Made by a program: the position numbers and the translations under genes. This document shows positions 33,578-64,000 of a stretch of 64,000 bases of DNA, piece after piece (position 1 is the stretch's first letter; each line of letters begins with the position of its first letter). The notes under the pieces are model-generated. The model was not told the DNA's origin, ran no database searches, and saw only the letters and a list, made by a program, of their open reading frames with translations. Source of the DNA: Candidatus Magasanikiibacteriota bacterium (lineage in GTDB: Bacteria > Patescibacteriota > Patescibacteriia > Magasanikbacterales > GWA2-37-8); contig JAGOQR010000003.1 in the NCBI GenBank assembly GCA_017991415.1, forward strand, positions 44,279 through 108,278, given 5' to 3'.

Positions 33578-33650
33578 CAAATACTTAAAATGAGCGCCCA
33601 TTAATTACAATTAGTGTAAGGGTTTCTGGAACTTCTGTCTAGACATAAAT
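33578..33650 (+). repeat. Direct repeat copy A flanking the GC-rich cassette
   Basis: aaaatgagcgcccattaattacaattagtgtaagggtttctggaacttctgtctagac aligns at about 80% identity with copy B at 34845-34936 (ttacaatcagtgtaaggatttctggggattctgtacagac). Confidence 0.6.
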
Positions 33651-33731
33651 TTAGGATACTTGGATCAGGTTTGAAATTTAAAATAAAAAAAACGAAACAG
33701 TAAAACAGGTGTTTGGAAAGCAATTCTTCCA

Positions 33732-33760
33732 TTGACAAAACACTATTTTTATGCTAATAT
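33732..33760 (+). promoter_or_regulatory. Near-consensus sigma70 promoter driving the GC-rich lipoprotein gene
   Basis: TTGACA (33732-33737), a 17-nt spacer, then TAATAT (33755-33760), all in AT-rich DNA. A leader of about 100 nt contains the SD AAAGGA. Confidence 0.6.
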
Positions 33761-33863
33761 AATGTGTTCTTTTTCAACACTTGATACCCTTATCGACCCC
33801 AACTTTACCGAGGCTAATGCTATCGGTGGGTCTGAGGGGTTTCAAGCCACGAAAGGAATCGAC

Positions 33864-34640
33864 ATGACCCGCATCTCGATCATTCTCGCCGCTGCCTTCG
33901 CCGTCGCCGCCTGCACCGAGACCGAGGTGGTCGTCAACGACCACTACGGCGTCTGCACGGCCGACGAGCAGTGCCCGGGCACCTACGTGTGCCAGGACGG
34001 CATCTGCATCGAGCCGGAGGAGCCGCCACAGTCGGTCGCGGACTGTGCGACCTACGAGTGGGCCGGTCGGGAGACGCCCTGGCACTGCTGGTGCGAGGGC
34101 GACAACTGCATCGGCACCGATGCCGAGCTCCCCTGGGAGTGCCCGCTCGACTTGCTGGACTCCGATCCCAACGACGGCGTCTGCGGTGTGCAGTGCCACG
34201 ACCACTTCTGGCTCGACGCCCAAGCGGTCGGTCTCGACCCCAACACCTCGCCCCCGTCCCTGACCTTCGACGTCGGTAACGGTGTGGTGACATGCACCCA
34301 GTACGTCGACATCTCGCCCTTGCGCTTCGTGCGCAGCCAGACCGAGATCTACCTGGATGCGCCCGACGGCCGTACCGTCCAGATCGACTATCGGATGACG
34401 GCCCCGGCCATCGTCGAGGTGTTCATCCGGTACAACGAGGGTGCCCAGTGGATCAACGGCGGACTTGCCTTCACCTACACCTTCCCGGGCGGCCCCACCA
34501 ACATCGGTGGCGTGCGGTACGGGTTCCGGCCGGAAGAGTCATTCCCTTCGGGGACCACCACCTACTGGAAGCTCGAGGCTCATCGGTGGATCAACAACGA
34601 GCTGTTCGACACCTGGACGGGGAGCATCACGCTCCCCTGA
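33864..34640 (+). CDS. Cysteine-rich secreted lipoprotein of unknown function, encoded in a compositionally foreign (about 65% GC) segment
   Basis: ATG at 33864 preceded by AAAGGA. Lipoprotein signal MTRISIILAAAFAVAAC. At least 12 Cys in the N-terminal half (CTADEQCPGTYVCQDGICIEPEE; WHCWCEGDNCIG). Codons are strongly GC3-biased, unlike all neighbouring genes. The opposite-strand and other-frame ORFs listed in the track here are high-GC artefacts. Confidence 0.7.
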   Translation: MTRISIILAAAFAVAACTETEVVVNDHYGVCTADEQCPGTYVCQDGICIEPEEPPQSVADCATYEWAGRETPWHCWCEGDNCIGTDAELPWECPLDLLDSDPNDGVCGVQCHDHFWLDAQAVGLDPNTSPPSLTFDVGNGVVTCTQYVDISPLRFVRSQTEIYLDAPDGRTVQIDYRMTAPAIVEVFIRYNEGAQWINGGLAFTYTFPGGPTNIGGVRYGFRPEESFPSGTTTYWKLEAHRWINNELFDTWTGSITLP

Positions 34641-34646
34641 ACACTG

Positions 34647-34744
34647 CCTCTGGCTGCGCTCTCACGAGAGAGCGCAGCCCCATCCGAGTTGTTTGCACAA
34701 CAGAATAATTAATTTGTTATGTTGTGCAAACTCGGATGCAGAGG
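34647..34744 (+). repeat. Composite inverted-repeat structure at the 3' end of the GC-rich gene
   Basis: An outer pair cctctg...cagagg encloses a GC hairpin (ggctgcgctctc-acgag-agagcgcagcc, 34652-34679) and a 19-22 bp AT-richer imperfect IR (catccgagttgtttgcacaaca ... tgttgtgcaaactcggatg, 34681-34738). Confidence 0.6.
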
Positions 34745-34757
34745 AAGTATAAATTTA

Positions 34758-34792
34758 AAAAGCCCTTCTTATTCAGAAGGGCTTTTTAGTTA
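34758..34792. terminator. Bidirectional rho-independent terminator
   Basis: aaaaagcccttc-ttattca-gaagggcttttt. Confidence 0.65.
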
Positions 34793-34844: not shown

Positions 34845-34936
34845 GGATTTAAAAGATGACGCACTGCGGGCCACTCGGGTTAAGTACCCGTTAGTTACAA
34901 TCAGTGTAAGGATTTCTGGGGATTCTGTACAGACTT
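34845..34936 (+). repeat. Direct repeat copy B flanking the GC-rich cassette
   Basis: Matches copy A, with an internal GC-rich insertion of about 23 bp. Lies between the cassette terminator and a hypothetical gene next to tRNA-Ser. Confidence 0.6.
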
Positions 34937-35034
34937 AGAGTCGAGGCACGTGGGTCTAGCCTGGATTTTAACAGGTCATCTAATAAAGAACGCCTAATAT
35001 TGAGAGCATGTGATAGTATCCGAATTGGAACAAT

Positions 35035-35475: not shown

Positions 35476-35499
35476 AATTATTTGATTTTTTAAAAAATG

Positions 35500-35584
35500 C
35501 GGAGAGGGTGGGATTCGAACCCACGAGGCCTTGCAGCCTACCGCTTTTCGAGAGCGGCACTTTCGACCACTCAGACACCTCTCC
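35500..35584 (-). tRNA. tRNA-Ser (anticodon CGA), type II tRNA with a long variable arm
   Basis: Reverse complement is GGAGAGGTGTCTGAGTGGTCGAAAGTGCCGCTCTCGAAAAGCGGTAGGCTGCAAGGCCTCGTGGGTTCGAATCCCACCCTCTCCG. Anticodon loop CTCGAAA. Long variable arm. Confidence 0.85.
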
Positions 35585-59391: not shown

Positions 59392-60189
59392 CTACAAATC
59401 AACCTCAACTGCTACCGGACAATGGTCGGAGCCAAGAACATCTTTATGGATTGTCGCTTTGGTAACTTTTGATACTAATTTTTTACTGACAAAGAAGTAA
59501 TCAATTCTCCAGCCAACATTACGGGCACGAGCGTCACCAAAATGACTCCACCATGTATAGTGCCCATTGCCTTTGGTAAAAATACGGAAAGTGTCCGCAA
59601 AACCACGCTTAATTATATTATCTATCCCTTCTCGTTCCTCGTACGTAAAACCGTGTCCGCCGATATTTTCTTTGGGCCGCGCCAAATCATCTTCGGTATG
59701 AGCAACGTTTAAGTCGCCACAAAACACAACTGGTTTCTTTTTTTCCAACTGGCACATATATTCCAAAAATGCCGGATCCCACTGCTTGTGGCGTAATGGA
59801 ATGCGAGAGAGATCTTCTTTGGCATTAGGTGTATATACGGTAACAACGTAGAATTTTTTGAATTCAAGAACCGTGACTCGACCCTCGGCATTAGCATCAC
59901 CATACTTATCACTCACTAGTTTATATTTCTTGGCAATATCTTCTGGAATACCCAACACTACCGAAATCGGTTTAATTTTGGTAAATATAGCCGTCCCGCT
60001 GTACCCTGGTCGCTCTGCCGAATTCCAATACTCTTCATAGTCCGGTAAATCAACTTCGCTCTGATGCTGCTTGGCTTTTGTTTCTTGCAAACACAAAATA
60101 TCGGGTTTGTACTTTTCAATAAAAGGCAGGAACATGCCCTTTTTGTGGACTGCCCGAATTCCGTTGATGTTCCAAGACATTATACGCAT
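59392..60189 (-). CDS. xth: Exodeoxyribonuclease III (AP endonuclease, Xth family)
   Basis: Start reassigned to [13 protein letters not shown]. The ORF-track N-terminal extension runs through tRNA-Ser. Xth motifs include LQETK, GDLNVAH and the C-terminal SDHCPV. Confidence 0.8.
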
Positions 60190-60205
60190 GGTGCTTTTAA
60201 AAAAT

Positions 60206-60291
<86 letters not shown>

Positions 60292-60342
60292 AAAAAGTAT
60301 GATTAGATTAACATAAAGAAATTGAGAAATCAATAGTCATAG

Positions 60343-62934
60343 TTACCTTCTTTTAAAGAATTTTTCCTTTGCTTGTTTTACCCACCCTGCAATTATAACA
60401 CCTTTAAATCTGATTAAAAAAGCAAGGACAAGGGCACTTATACCACCCAATGTAACTAAACTATATTTTTTAACAACGTTTTCTTTAGTATTGCTAATTT
60501 TTTCGCCTAAAACCTTGGCGTCTGGCGCCACATCTATTACCTGAACATCGTCATTGGACCTTGGCCAAAGCTGCCATTCACTAGCTGTTTTTTCTAAAAT
60601 TCCTACAACCCAAACCCTCTCGCCTTCTTTTAAGTTTTGCTTATTAATTTGAGCGTTCTTTTTAAAAGTGACTTTTATTTCCGCTTCACCATTATCAACA
60701 AACATAAAGCTGGATTTAAGCTCTGTAATCTCGCCTTCAACCTGAACTAAGGCGCCAGCATTACTATCTTCTAAGCCCGACAAACTGACTTCAGTTTTTG
60801 GTACCACATTGCCAAGCGATAAAATATCAACACTCTGACTATTTTTAATATTTACTCTTTTTATTCCACTGACCTCGGAAACAGTTCCAGAAACTTCTAC
60901 CAGGTCACCAACACCTAGCGGCGGAAAGTCTTTTTTACTCTGATAAATTTGCACTCCTGCATTATCATTATTTATATAAAAAAACTGGCTACCAAATATA
61001 TTTGGCACAACCGAGACTATACCTTTTATTTTCACTGGCTGGCCTTTGACAGCACTTCGCACATCCCCGATATTTATAACAAGCGCTCCAACAGATTTGG
61101 TTGCGGTTTTTTGATTAGTGTTACTATTTTTTTCTTCTGCCAACAAACTTTCTGATTCTAATGTTAAAATCTTACCTGGATTTGGTTTTACCCATCGCCA
61201 CTCTCCCCGAACTAATGCAAAACTTTTACCAGATAATGGTTTTTCGTATTTTACCAAATCAACAAGGGTTTTATCTTTATTAAATAACTCAACTTTTCCA
61301 ACCGTGTTTACCAGACTAATCTTGGTGGCCGCTTTATAAAAAACCAACGTACCGTTCGGAGCAATAATCGTATTATCTACAAAAGTATATTTTTTATCAC
61401 CAACTTTTAAAAACCAGCCGGCCAGATTAACAACTGTAGCAGAATTATTTTTCAACTCAATAAACTCTGCGCTATCATCGCCTTCTGGATTTGGTAATAT
61501 TTCCGAAATAATTATATCGGCGTTCTGAGCCAAACCACTCCCTACACTAATTTCTATTTTTTTATTTTCTCCATACCCACTTGTGCTTGTTACAAACAAC
61601 GAGACGGTATGCGTGCCGGAGGTGGCAAAACTAGTCTTTATTTCTGGCCCCACTACCTGCTGACCATTTTCTAAGGTCCAAAAAAAGTGCAGCTGCCCAC
61701 CACGCGGATCGGCTACATCTTCGGCATTAAGGGTTATTGTTTCGTTTATATCAGCCGAGGAAGGCGCTATAATATTCCATACAAAAATAGCTGGTGTTTT
61801 TTTAATGGTTTTGACTGTGCTTGAAACTACTTTTTGAGAAAAGCTACTATCGCTGCTTACCGTTTCTTCTACAACTATTACATTCGCTGCGCCTGGAGAA
61901 ATTTTATTTGTCACAAGCCAATCTGCCTCATTATCTGTATCCAACCCATCTACAATTCGAGCGAGTGACTGGCCTTCGTCTGGAGACAGCTCATCGTTAT
62001 AATCTATCCTATCTATTACCACCCCACGAACATCTTTTAAAATAACACTATCTCCAGAATTATTTAAAAAACTTTTACTTTGCAGATCTATCTGCAACCA
62101 CCCATACGGCCCCACAGCCCCAGTTATTTTTTTACAGGTAGAGGTGGTGTTGCGAGAATCACATACCATAGCCCCACCTATATCAACAGAAAGCCCCGAA
62201 GAATTAAACAGTTCTACCCATTCATTTCCATCTTCGGGATCTGACACTATCTCGTTTAGAGAGAGCGCAGTTAAATCAGCTGGAGTAACCGCCACTAACC
62301 CAGATTGCGAAGCACTAGATCCATACGGATTTATAAAAGAAGATGTACTTGTTACAACCTCTTCTTGCGCAAGAACAGTTGTGGTAATACTTGTTGTACT
62401 AACAAAAGAAGTAAAATTATTTACAAATCCAACAGTATTACTTGCCAGATGTTCAGCCCAATTAACCGATGTATAATCGGATAAAAAAGAATCTTTTCTT
62501 TGCAAAGAAAAATTAGCAGCAATGGGGTATGTAAACTGTTCTACAAAATTTCCTTGCGCATCCTTTAACCCTATTACTTCTCCGCTTTCATTTAGGCTGC
62601 TCCAAGAAGAATCAAAAACCGAACCAGCAAAAAATGGATAATCTATAATAAACTGGGTGGCATCCTGTACAATTACTCCGTATTCACCAGCATCAAGAAT
62701 AGAATTTGTGGTACTCACCGACAAGCTATGATTTGTATTGTTTTCCCAAAATTTCCAACTTAACAAGTCTACTGGCTCGCTTCCCTTATTCCAAATTTCT
62801 ATCCACTCATGCCCACTGGGTTCGTATGCACCTATTTCATTAATAACAATATCGGAGTTAGCAGAAAAAGCATACTGGCCAACAAAAAAACTACTTGCCA
62901 ATAAAAACAAAATAAAAACTATCCTCCGCTTCAT
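60343..62934 (-). CDS. Large secreted protein with multiple lamin-tail domains (LTD) and a C-terminal membrane anchor
   Basis: 863 aa with a signal peptide. Three LTD-like units (IVINEIGAYEPSGHEWIEIWNKGSEPVDLLSWKF; SLNEIVSDPEDGNEWVELFNSSGLSVDIGG; IIISEILPNPEGDDSAEFIELKNNSATVVNLAGWFL). C-terminal TM (LVTLGGISALVLAFLI) followed by a basic tail. Confidence 0.65.
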   Translation of the reverse strand: MKRRIVFILFLLASSFFVGQYAFSANSDIVINEIGAYEPSGHEWIEIWNKGSEPVDLLSWKFWENNTNHSLSVSTTNSILDAGEYGVIVQDATQFIIDYPFFAGSVFDSSWSSLNESGEVIGLKDAQGNFVEQFTYPIAANFSLQRKDSFLSDYTSVNWAEHLASNTVGFVNNFTSFVSTTSITTTVLAQEEVVTSTSSFINPYGSSASQSGLVAVTPADLTALSLNEIVSDPEDGNEWVELFNSSGLSVDIGGAMVCDSRNTTSTCKKITGAVGPYGWLQIDLQSKSFLNNSGDSVILKDVRGVVIDRIDYNDELSPDEGQSLARIVDGLDTDNEADWLVTNKISPGAANVIVVEETVSSDSSFSQKVVSSTVKTIKKTPAIFVWNIIAPSSADINETITLNAEDVADPRGGQLHFFWTLENGQQVVGPEIKTSFATSGTHTVSLFVTSTSGYGENKKIEISVGSGLAQNADIIISEILPNPEGDDSAEFIELKNNSATVVNLAGWFLKVGDKKYTFVDNTIIAPNGTLVFYKAATKISLVNTVGKVELFNKDKTLVDLVKYEKPLSGKSFALVRGEWRWVKPNPGKILTLESESLLAEEKNSNTNQKTATKSVGALVINIGDVRSAVKGQPVKIKGIVSVVPNIFGSQFFYINNDNAGVQIYQSKKDFPPLGVGDLVEVSGTVSEVSGIKRVNIKNSQSVDILSLGNVVPKTEVSLSGLEDSNAGALVQVEGEITELKSSFMFVDNGEAEIKVTFKKNAQINKQNLKEGERVWVVGILEKTASEWQLWPRSNDDVQVIDVAPDAKVLGEKISNTKENVVKKYSLVTLGGISALVLAFLIRFKGVIIAGWVKQAKEKFFKRR

Positions 62935-63168
62935 AAATTAAAGTTTAACGTAACTTAATTTATCAAATATAGAGTATGGGATGTCAAAAATATTTAACAT
63001 AAATTTAAAATTTGTATCAAAAATTAAATAACACCTAGCAACTTACCTGTCCGCTTTGAAAAAACCAAAGTAAACTTGAGGAATTATATCACTTTTCAAA
63101 CACGAATTGTCAAGGATCTTGGTGTAACTAAAAACACTCCACTTTCATGGAATGTTTTTAAAAATTTT

Positions 63169-63230
63169 CTGAGATCTCCGTAATTCTATATACAAGTATT
63201 TATATAGAGAATTACGGCGGAGATCTCAGG
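63169..63230. repeat. 62-bp imperfect inverted repeat abutting the second GC-rich segment
   Basis: ctgagatctccgtaattctatata ... tatatagagaattacggcggagatctcagg. The right arm carries two 2-nt insertions. Composition switches to GC-rich immediately after the IR. Confidence 0.6.
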
Positions 63231-63293
63231 CATCCTCCACCGCACTGTTGGGGTTGGAGGTTGATGCGTTGTTGGGCGCGGGCCGACGCGGCG

Positions 63294-63692
63294 CTACTTG
63301 ACGGTGAAGGTGACCCTCGACCAGTCGATCTCGACCGGTCGTGCGACGTAGCTGAAGTCGCACTGGCCGACGTGCCCGTTCTTGTCGATGAACTCGCTGA
63401 GCGTCACCGGCTTGAGCTGGTAGGCCAACGCGGTGAACTTGGGAGCCGCCTTGGCGCAGTTGTCGTAGGTCAGACCGGAGGCGCTGGTGTCTCGAGCGCG
63501 GACGATGATATCGACCATCGCCGACATGATGCGCTCCTCGCAACTGGCGTTCTTGCACTGCTTGGGCGCCGACTTGTCGGCCTTGGACGACGCCTGCGTC
63601 TTGGCACTGACGACAGTCTCCGCTCCGGCGACCGAAGCGATGGTGCCGAACAGGAGGGTGAAGAACATGCAGAGCTTGAGAGTGGTATTCAC
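63294..63692 (-). CDS. Small secreted protein of unknown function, encoded in a compositionally foreign (about 60-65% GC) segment
   Basis: 132 aa with a GTG start at 63690-63692 preceded by the SD AGGAGA. Signal peptide LKLCMFFTLLFGTIASVAGAE. Several Cys (CKNASCEE; DNCAKAAP; VGQCDF). Strong GC3 bias. The overlapping + strand ORFs in the track are high-GC artefacts. Confidence 0.65.
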   Translation of the reverse strand: MNTTLKLCMFFTLLFGTIASVAGAETVVSAKTQASSKADKSAPKQCKNASCEERIMSAMVDIIVRARDTSASGLTYDNCAKAAPKFTALAYQLKPVTLSEFIDKNGHVGQCDFSYVARPVEIDWSRVTFTVK

Positions 63693-63830
63693 GACAGTCT
63701 CCTACGTGGGGGTTTTGGAAATTGAACCTTTGTACAAGCCAGCAGGCTTTACCAAGGTAAAAGAAAGCCTAGTTTTGGATCTCTTTTCCCCTGGCAAAGC
63801 CTGGTTTGTTATTTAAAAGAGCAACAGACA

Positions 63831-63859
63831 ATTATACACCAAAACAAGAATTTTGTCAA
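63831..63859 (-). promoter_or_regulatory. Consensus sigma70 promoter driving the second GC-rich gene
   Basis: Read on the minus strand: TTGACA, a 17-nt spacer, then TATAAT, in AT-rich DNA. A structured leader of about 130 nt precedes the SD. Confidence 0.6.
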
Positions 63860-64000
63860 TCCCCCTACGAGAGTGATAATATATTTTGGCTAAGATAAAA
63901 GATTTTTGTAGTACCCCCCCCTATAGACACGGCTTATTCCAAAGGATAGGTTAAACAAAAAATACCTTCACTCAATTACAGAGACAGGGCTGAACAACAT

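Follow-up and report, generated by a model that had tools for sequence, protein, structure and literature searches.

An exchangeable G+C-rich module for a predicted secreted protein in a conserved A+T-rich frame of Candidatus Magasanikbacteria and related genomes

Hypervariable loci of atypical G+C content can sit in conserved flanks, as do the O-antigen clusters between galF and gnd. In Borrelia, the vls cassettes reach 49% G+C in a genome of 28.6% G+C and have associated inverted repeats, and the authors describing them infer, as we do below for another locus, a pressure maintaining the high G+C content (PMC11499132). For bacteria, biased gene conversion has been suggested (PMC4450053), and the phage moron is an autonomous unit of promoter, open reading frame (ORF) and terminator whose G+C content is unlike that of its surroundings (PMC2920897). 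Here we analyse a stretch of 64,000 nt (positions 44,279-108,278 of contig JAGOQR010000003.1, which is 183.6 kb long; hereafter the window) from a metagenome-assembled genome (MAG) of Candidatus Magasanikbacteria with locus tags KBC69_, concentrating on a G+C-rich gene for a small predicted secreted protein near its end, here called cassette 2. Comparison with related genomes shows that this gene belongs to a variable module that is replaced by homologous recombination through a conserved A+T-rich frame, and that the high G+C content of the module is actively, if leakily, maintained. We file the locus among the compositionally deviant, recombining hypervariable loci in conserved frames; judged by analogy, Borrelia vls is the closest precedent for an exported-protein locus that is variable, has an inverted repeat and maintains a high G+C content although its genome is A+T-rich.

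The window has a mean G+C content of 39.2% and contains exactly two G+C islands, cassette 1 at about 33.8-34.7 kb and cassette 2 at 63231-63716. The latter measures 62.1% G+C, between flanks of 25.6% (62935-63168) and 38.0% (63717-64000). An initial annotation of the window had put it at 60-65% and had read in it a signal-peptide protein of 132 aa with a GTG start, an AGGAGA Shine-Dalgarno (SD) sequence and 5-6 cysteines; both statements hold, the cysteines numbering five (positions 8, 46, 51, 79 and 111), with one inside the signal peptide. The ORF (63294-63692, minus strand) begins 6 nt after the SD sequence (63698-63703), and the GTG start is backed by an SD-to-start spacing kept in relatives; the NCBI annotation has a shorter form of 124 aa from an internal ATG. 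G+C content at the first, second and third codon positions (GC1, GC2, GC3) is 0.50, 0.46 and 0.89, the last value lying 11 standard deviations above the 0.329 +/- 0.051 of the window's 49 background ORFs. Codon preferences are nearly inverted, with AAG used in 11 of 11 cases, TTC in 7 of 7 and GTC in 10 of 12, against 20%, 14% and 9% in the background. The period-3 pattern of G+C content, the conserved putative signal peptides, the Cys pattern and the confidence of the modelled core (see below) support a real protein.

While a word-indexed protein search matched only the cassette 2 protein itself, an exhaustive HMMER scan retrieved two relatives, P0013 (46% identity) and P0014 (40%); a eukaryote-like repeat protein from the same search, P0015, was dropped as spurious. 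P0013 and P0014 are syntenic, and one of them sits on contigs of 21 kb to 754 kb directly upstream of a gene for an LTD/PKD/OB-fold protein. Scanning species-representative genomes with the promoter pattern described below yielded four more syntenic loci along with six unrelated promoters, and a corresponding scan of metagenomes added only a duplicate of one of them (locus L022). The locus is thus represented by six distinct alleles, that of the window and five from related genomes, P0013 belonging to locus L007. Their parts keep the same order, namely an upstream box, promoter, leader, SD sequence, signal peptide and mature protein of about 100 aa, GC-rich 3' untranslated region (3'UTR), hairpin and terminator, followed by an A+T-rich spacer of about 200 nt and the LTD gene. 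In the window this downstream neighbour encodes an 863-aa LTD/PKD/OB-fold surface protein (60343-62934, minus strand; GC3 0.29), which we used as an anchor and as a control for composition and substitution. Every cassette 2 allele is a G+C island (GC3 0.82-0.94) within DNA of 30-45% G+C. The promoter, the first 80 nt or so of the leader and the terminator are near-invariant; the stretch that starts in the distal leader and runs to the hairpin's end is barely alignable. The proteins of what we call family A are 34-46% identical, those of L014 and L018 share only a Cys/Gly skeleton, and that of L022 looks unrelated.

The initial annotation had regarded the ORF as foreign and as installed behind a native promoter, and neither idea survives the comparison. 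No relative of either cassette protein was found in a GC-rich genome among about 15 billion proteins searched by word index and exhaustively with HMMER, scans of viral, phage and plasmid sequences with either protein came back empty, and all 15 distinct loci examined for the two cassettes lie in DNA of 30-45% G+C. The unit, from promoter and leader through ORF and hairpin to terminator, is inherited as a whole at a syntenic site although the neighbouring genes are saturated: the LTD proteins of the window and L007 are 60% identical, and their synonymous sites differ at a proportion (pS) of 0.76. Because the GC3 is held and the unit is syntenic across genomes whose neighbour genes are saturated, we regard cassette 2 as an old resident locus rather than a fresh insertion. 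It is compositionally deviant, as a recent genomic island would be, but it has no relative in a donor context, it is syntenic, and it has held its GC3 despite turnover between G and C. The neighbourhood is ordinary chromosome, with no recombinase, integrase, transposase or reverse transcriptase among the annotated neighbours, and no empty frame was met among the syntenic relatives, the site being occupied in all.

The exchange of the variable part as a module is borne out by two comparisons. L007 and L018 are 85-99% identical in their flanks and 51% different over about 430 nt covering the mature protein, 3'UTR and hairpin. L007 and L021, conversely, differ by 2.7% upstream and by 3-14% in the LTD gene and show 0-1 differences over a common block of about 1 kb from the -35 box to the LTD start; within their LTD gene the 3-14% blocks alternate in mosaic fashion, and the 3' part is wholly divergent. 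One module is identical in four assemblies whose flanks differ. Near-identical genomes thus carry unrelated modules and diverged genomes carry identical ones, which shows that alleles have been swapped by homologous recombination through the conserved frame. At the 5' side the divergence sets in as a gradient through the leader and signal peptide and not at a site. The identity of one module across four assemblies, set against their differing flanks, excludes local hypermutation on short timescales. A diversity-generating retroelement or a set of silent cassettes was also considered; the 64-kb window holds no second copy of either module.

High G+C content is a property of both cassettes, GC3 being 0.68-0.90 in nine cassette 1 loci and only 0.29-0.44 in neighbouring genes. 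In the LTD gene, closely related genomes differ at synonymous third positions by 295 exchanges between G/C (strong, S) and A/T (weak, W), 11 between G and C (S<->S) and five between A and T (W<->W). Per G/C site, changes from G/C to A/T outnumber those between G and C by 13 to one, and the implied equilibrium GC3 is 0.39. In the modules, by contrast with these expectations, the ratio of SW to SS differences, which is partly bounded by composition, is 1.7-1.9 instead of about 14 (Fisher p 2e-3 to 2e-13), with G<->C differences in 9-16% of synonymous codons. With G and C exchanged to this extent, decay that passively followed the host spectrum, computed from the LTD rates, should have brought the modules to a GC3 of about 0.47 if the alleles lived in genomes with an LTD-type substitution spectrum, and their high G+C content is therefore actively maintained. 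Polarised counts agree in being near-balanced between S>W and W>S changes on the lineages of the window, L003 and L024. The maintenance is leaky, since L029 and L030 have a S>W:W>S ratio of about 20:1 and the GC3 of L006 and L001 is down to 0.68-0.74. Not only third positions but also non-coding parts of the module under weak constraint are G+C-rich; the hairpin, variable too, is A+T-rich.

The frame begins with a conserved upstream box, TTAGCCAAAA (63884-63893, minus strand), and a putative sigma-70-type promoter, TTGACA (63854-63859) and TATAAT (63831-63836) at a spacing of 17 nt on the minus strand. The perfect promoter claimed earlier is indeed there at 63859-63831, with 12 of 12 consensus positions, and it is the sole perfect instance in the window; with at most one mismatch allowed there are six matches, against 0.8 expected. 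The block TATTATCACTCT-N5-GGGGA in the promoter region (63831-63893, minus strand) is near-invariant in the six alleles, whose common pattern reads TTAGCCAAAA..TTATCACTCT-N5-GGGGATTGACAAAA-N9-TGGTGTATA; the -35 box is invariant, and the -10 box is TATAAT, TATAGT or TATACT. The leader that follows, of about 135 nt (63693-63827, minus strand), comprises a start predicted to be single-stranded (CUGUUGCUCUUUUAAA), a conserved hairpin, a variable GC-richer part and the SD sequence. In all six alleles it begins with CTGTTGCTCTTT and carries the conserved GCCAGGGGAAA/TTTCCCCTYGGC hairpin, which has the form GCCAGGGGAAA.../...UUUCCCCUYGGC and in the window spans 63743-63803 with a folding free energy (dG) of about -36. 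Covariation in this stem is weak because the stem sequence itself is conserved. Rfam at gathering thresholds found only tRNAs in the window, and at E<=1 only chance-level matches in either cassette (for the leader, one microRNA match).

Downstream of the ORF lies a GC-rich 3'UTR with small GC hairpins (63230-63293, minus strand; 64 nt, 69% G+C), equivalent to stretches of 41-92 nt and 48-72% G+C in the other alleles, and then a long bulged hairpin that belongs to the variable module. The inverted repeat underlying this hairpin had been noted before as 62 bp at 63169-63230 with two 2-nt bulges; it exists, measuring 61 nt (63169-63229, minus strand) with a single 3-nt bulge. Folded on the ORF strand (dG -30.1 kcal/mol, z = -8.3; none of 200 shuffled sequences folds as well), it has an outer stem of 11 bp, the bulge in the 5' arm, an inner stem of 16 bp that is A+T-rich and contains one C.U mismatch, and a loop of 4 nt. 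All six alleles fold alike, with an outer stem of about 11 bp, the 3-nt bulge in the 5' arm, an A+T-rich inner stem of about 16 bp and a loop of 3-5 nt, at a length of 60-62 nt, dG of -30 to -35 and z of -7.7 to -9.4; the hairpin base reads YTGAG...CTCRG. On a common register 96.9% of the cells are paired and 10 of the 27 pairs have changed on both sides, a covariation score reached by none of 500 shuffles, and slid registers pair only 25-52%. There are 14 G.U cells on the ORF strand versus two A.C, and the sense fold (dG -30 to -35) beats the antisense fold (mean -26) in five of the six alleles.

This hairpin is not where transcription would end, contrary to the initial annotation: it lacks a T-tract, its inner stem is A+T-rich, and AAAA comes directly after it. 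The terminator is a second hairpin at 63120-63161 (minus strand), AAAAACAUUCC-loop-GGAGUGUUUUU with a U-tract (dG -16.4), kept in all alleles in the form AAAAACAYTCC...GGRRTGTTTTT; a simple scanner missed it because its stem has few G-C pairs. Nor does the long hairpin look like the boundary or junction that it was taken for. It covaries, folds better on the sense strand, moves with the module, has no integron-type core sites and lies upstream of the separate terminator, and for these reasons we consider it, from its sequence features, most likely a 3'UTR element that acts as RNA, be it as a stabiliser or as a site for a double-strand RNase or a double-stranded RNA (dsRNA)-binding protein. It may also have a role as single-stranded DNA on the ORF strand. 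In a fold census of the window, the two G+C cassettes alone had this bulged design lacking a T-tract; the remaining long A+T hairpins were ordinary terminators. A covariance model of the hairpin found no further copies in 142 kb.

The protein itself begins with a predicted signal peptide (residues 1-24, 63621-63692, minus strand, ending VAGA/ETV), leaving a mature part of about 108 aa with four cysteines. Judged by eye, the signal peptides of the six alleles end in AGA/E, AYA/D, AHA/D, VSA/D or ARA/D. AlphaFold2, given an alignment of three sequences, models residues ~42-115 as a three-helix bundle (predicted local distance difference test score, pLDDT, 68-91), and sequence and structure searches with the protein returned no informative match. 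The nonsynonymous substitution rate relative to the synonymous one (dN/dS) is about 0.7 by a crude estimate. Its predicted secretion, small size, disulfides and fast evolution, and the position of its gene beside that of a large surface protein, suggest a factor for extracellular interactions on which diversifying selection acts.

The first island of the window has the same layout, as had been pointed out before: promoter, leader, GC-rich ORF, bulged hairpin and terminator follow one another at 33.7-34.8 kb. This cassette 1 unit (33732-34789, plus strand) begins with a putative promoter, TTGACA (33732-33737) and TAATAT at a spacing of 17 nt, and a leader of about 100 nt, followed by a lipoprotein ORF (33864-34640; 258 aa, GC3 0.90), a GC hairpin (34652-34679), a bulged long hairpin (34681-34738) and a terminator (34755-34789), all on the plus strand. 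The lipoprotein has ten relatives at 41-73% identity, and the nine loci examined, which represent at least four gene contexts, are without exception G+C islands surrounded by A+T-rich DNA; their promoter and leader are conserved. The long hairpin (in the window and L003) has the same design as that of cassette 2 and an unrelated sequence; the more distant relatives L001 and L006 are without it, yet GC-rich. Both cassettes share a TTGACAAAA context, a T-rich spacer and a predicted transcript start of the form (C)TGTT(G)CT(C)TTT, and several members also have TTAGCCAAA/TTTGGCTAA boxes. Further G+C islands with secreted or Cys-rich products were noticed in the related genomes: a secreted M28-family peptidase of 607 aa in L022 (4781-6604, plus strand; GC3 0.75), a Cys-rich protein of 142 aa in L014 (2443-2871, plus strand; GC3 0.75) and a signal-peptide protein of 113 aa in L011 (717-1058, minus strand; GC3 0.67). 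GC-rich secreted-protein genes hence seem to recur as a class in the lineage, regulon-like rather than a single oddity given the shared promoter features and the additional GC3-rich secreted ORFs. The recurring mechanism postulated in the initial annotation stands to the extent that GC-rich secreted units do recur; the installation of foreign ORFs was not upheld.

Returning to the systems mentioned at the outset, we note that vls resembles cassette 2 in being a variable exported-protein locus of far higher G+C content than its A+T-rich genome, with an inverted repeat of variable sequence always present. It differs in having contiguous silent cassettes about 90% identical to the expressed gene, where our window has no second copy; in a strong positive GC skew, compared with about -0.1 on the coding strand here; and in the position of the repeat, which in vls is at the promoter and here forms a sense-strand hairpin downstream of the ORF. 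Moreover, vls undergoes segmental conversion within a clone, whereas the changes seen here, between genomes only, are replacements of the whole module. A moron likewise has its own promoter and terminator and a G+C content different from its surroundings, a likeness at the sequence level, but our locus has chromosomal neighbours and no viral or phage relatives were found for it; it is present at the same site in all relatives instead of patchily, and its promoter and terminator are host-like in composition and more conserved than the ORF. O-antigen-type loci are similar as deviant alleles in a fixed frame, recombined via conserved flanks and retained as ancient polymorphisms; they deviate, however, to low G+C content and comprise an operon, while here the G+C content is high and the frame, with its conserved transcript elements, holds a single small gene. 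A diversity-generating retroelement does not fit either: no reverse transcriptase is annotated among the neighbours, the 64 kb contain no second module copy, and the modules differ at all bases along their whole length and not adenine-specifically. As for the hairpin, 3' stabiliser hairpins, REP-type elements and RNase III processing stems occur in bacterial and phage mRNAs, and a bulged 3'UTR stem of about 27 bp before a terminator has the size and shape of a site for a double-strand-specific RNase or dsRNA-binding protein. Unlike REP-type elements it is not repeated (no other copy in 142 kb), and unlike generic stabilisers it has a constant length and a fixed 3-nt bulge.

The explanation that we prefer, and to which we give about as much credence as doubt, is that cassette 2 is a resident, vertically anchored locus of a Magasanikbacteria-like lineage of the Candidate Phyla Radiation (CPR), consisting of a conserved frame and an exchangeable GC-rich module. 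The A+T-rich frame would comprise the upstream box, the near-consensus sigma-70 promoter, the conserved leader of about 80 nt with its hairpin and the distal terminator, directly upstream of the LTD/PKD/OB gene. The module, of about 600 nt, would extend from the distal leader and SD sequence through the signal peptide and a secreted, disulfide-containing helical protein of about 100 aa to the GC-rich 3'UTR and the bulged hairpin of 60-62 nt. Its hypervariability between genomes, its swapping among relatives via the frame and its GC3 of about 0.9 are observed parts of this account, as is the expectation that the host substitution spectrum should have drawn GC3 to about 0.4-0.5. Beyond that, the protein would act as an extracellular factor diversified by selection from interaction with a host or competitor, and the long hairpin would act in the mRNA as a 3' stabiliser or as a double-strand-RNase or dsRNA-binding-protein site. 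The GC codons would be held by selection on transcript or translation, through mRNA stability or a tuned rate in a strongly transcribed, Sec-exported protein, a cause that we favour by elimination and with low confidence. Cassette 1 would be a second, unrelated gene with a frame of like kind, probably sharing its regulator with cassette 2. Several observations weigh against this explanation. The alleles number only six and all come from MAGs or metagenome contigs; the L022 protein is perhaps unrelated, which is compatible with import from outside; and the decay in L029, L030, L006 and L001 runs counter to maintenance. The alignments are deep, parsimony is biased toward common-to-rare changes, and the bound that composition sets on SW/SS belongs here as well. 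Transcript-level selection does not obviously explain the A+T-richness of the first 80 nt of the leader and of the hairpin, or the preference for G-ending Lys, Glu and Gln codons in an A+T-rich genome.

Among the alternatives, it appears unlikely that the G+C-richness is a by-product of recombination, be it through biased gene conversion or through a vls-like system with silent donors and a DNA-level hairpin promoting conversion. The locus demonstrably recombines, its variable and GC-rich regions coincide, and its non-coding module parts are GC-rich too, as bias rather than codon selection predicts; there is also the vls precedent (PMC11499132) and the proposal of biased gene conversion in bacteria (PMC4450053). 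Simple biased gene conversion is nevertheless weakened, because the equally mosaic neighbours keep an ordinary GC3 (0.29-0.40) and alleles about 50% divergent cannot form the heteroduplex required for biased repair. A variable but A+T-rich hairpin, the lack of a silent copy of either module within the window, a coding-strand GC skew slightly negative where that of vls is +0.5, and G.U pairs and sense/antisense energies favouring RNA or single-strand structure all speak against it. We are similarly doubtful that modules were repeatedly imported from unsampled GC-rich donors, such as hosts of episymbionts, so that the high GC3 would be the donor's and not maintained. Codon usage like that of an organism of 65-70% G+C would fit, as would the extreme differences among alleles (including the apparently unrelated L022), the decay of some lineages as expected after transfer, the other GC islands in related genomes (including the M28 peptidase, for which transfer is plausible) and a faint hint, below threshold, of a Myxococcus-type Cys repeat in cassette 1. 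What weakens repeated import is that no donor was found among the proteins, plasmids, phages and viral contigs searched, that all 15 loci lie in A+T-rich genomes, and that an A+T-rich hairpin together with a CPR-type signal peptide and leader moves with the module; donor DNA would already need CPR-specific flanks for recombination, and the family A alleles are interrelated within the same frame.

The mechanism closest to that of the initial annotation, a dedicated integron-like or hairpin-directed insertion of foreign ORF cassettes beside strong native promoters with the inverted repeat as recombination site, is in our view highly improbable. An ORF with an imperfect hairpin does recall an integron cassette and its attC site: the repeat, of 60-62 nt and 41-92 nt past the stop codon in the six alleles, falls within the 57-141 nt class, its sequence varies while its structure is kept, with a 3-nt bulge at a fixed position, it travels with the ORF, and the window has two unrelated ORFs with hairpins of the same design. 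Yet the six hairpins contain neither the RYYYAAC (R'') nor the GTTRRRY (R') core, whichever strand is read, the ORF-sense strand is the one favoured, and the neighbours include no integrase, transposase, reverse transcriptase, attI or cassette array. Integron cassettes usually lack a promoter, whereas cassette 2 is a single unit and has a conserved promoter of its own; all relatives have the site occupied, the 5' divergence boundary is gradual, the cassette 1 relatives L001 and L006 are GC-rich in spite of lacking the long hairpin, and the covariance model finds no other copies. There is a slim chance that the GC codon set is itself adaptive, either as a regulon in a host dialect (consensus sigma-70 promoter, strong SD sequence and Sec signal, the gene or mRNA being delivered to and expressed in a GC-rich host) or through GC-biasing diversification machinery acting between the leader hairpin and the 3' hairpin. 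An artefact, with reads of a GC-rich organism spliced in at a palindrome, might be suspected of a MAG contig whose G+C content changes abruptly beside an inverted repeat. It can be ruled out because independent JGI, Logan, ENA-derived and GTDB records from different samples agree in architecture and syntenic position; the inverted repeat is, besides, imperfect and covarying, and low-GC DNA lies on both sides.

If cassette 2 is indeed such a resident locus, composition-based methods would miscall units of this kind as recent horizontal transfers where comparison shows old residents. Third positions near 90% G+C in genomes equilibrating near 35-40% mean that strong synonymous selection or a localised GC-biasing process must act. 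The locus marks what are, by prediction, fast-evolving and probably highly expressed secreted proteins of the CPR, a group whose host-interaction molecules are almost unknown, and the 3'UTR hairpin of conserved shape, combined with the shared promoter and leader signature, could help to find the rest of the regulon.

Some further observations concern the surroundings of the two cassettes. In relatives, the DNA upstream of the cassette 2 promoter contains paired 22-nt palindromes, TTGTATAGACTAGTATACAA (L007 5860-5990; L011 1690-1830), as well as repeated TTTGGCTAAT/TTAGCCAAAA boxes, of which the window retains the one at 63884-63893, the rest lying past its end. Similar boxes occur upstream of several cassette 1 promoters (L001, L006, L026), and palindromes and boxes together look like operators of a shared regulator. 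Also upstream of the cassette 2 locus, a conserved GC-richer non-coding stretch beside a dksA/traR-type zinc-finger gene (L011 1360-1600; L007 5600-5760) may be an RNA gene; the corresponding DNA of the Magasanikbacteria contig falls outside the window. Cassette 1 is bordered on both sides by a conserved non-coding element of about 100 nt, intact at 34862-34970 and degenerate at 33590-33680 (both plus strand, 77% identical), and an element of the intact type precedes the cassette 1 promoter in L003 (693-800). It has no Rfam match at E<=1, is predicted to form three hairpins and shows weak covariation among its three sequences; a small RNA that escaped annotation, or a target site that was duplicated, could account for it.

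Antisense ORFs run over both cassettes (63261-63725, plus strand, 154 aa; 33774-34223, minus strand, 149 aa). They are most likely by-products of composition and not genes, since their G+C content by codon position follows the pattern of the reverse strand of a GC3-rich gene. Among Ser codons, UCG is used most often in both cassettes (5 of 10 and 5 of 12) but makes up only 10% of those in the background. A tRNA-Ser gene lies near each cassette, one with a CGA anticodon (35499-35584, minus strand) 0.8 kb from cassette 1 and one with a UGA anticodon (60206-60291, minus strand) 3 kb from cassette 2, a proximity that may be coincidence. The records of L014, L018, L021 and L022 (CAYIJG01, CAZHYG01, CAZLNR01 and CAZBWU01) are titled 'uncultured Gammaproteobacteria bacterium', a label that is probably wrong because they share with the Magasanikbacteria window a syntenic locus of CPR type, with the LTD/PKD/OB protein and 40-45% G+C. 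Finally, the LTD/PKD/OB-fold gene is followed by a gene for an Exo_endo_phos family nuclease (the two spanning 59392-62934, minus strand), and from their domains the two products look like an extracellular DNA-binding protein and nuclease pair.

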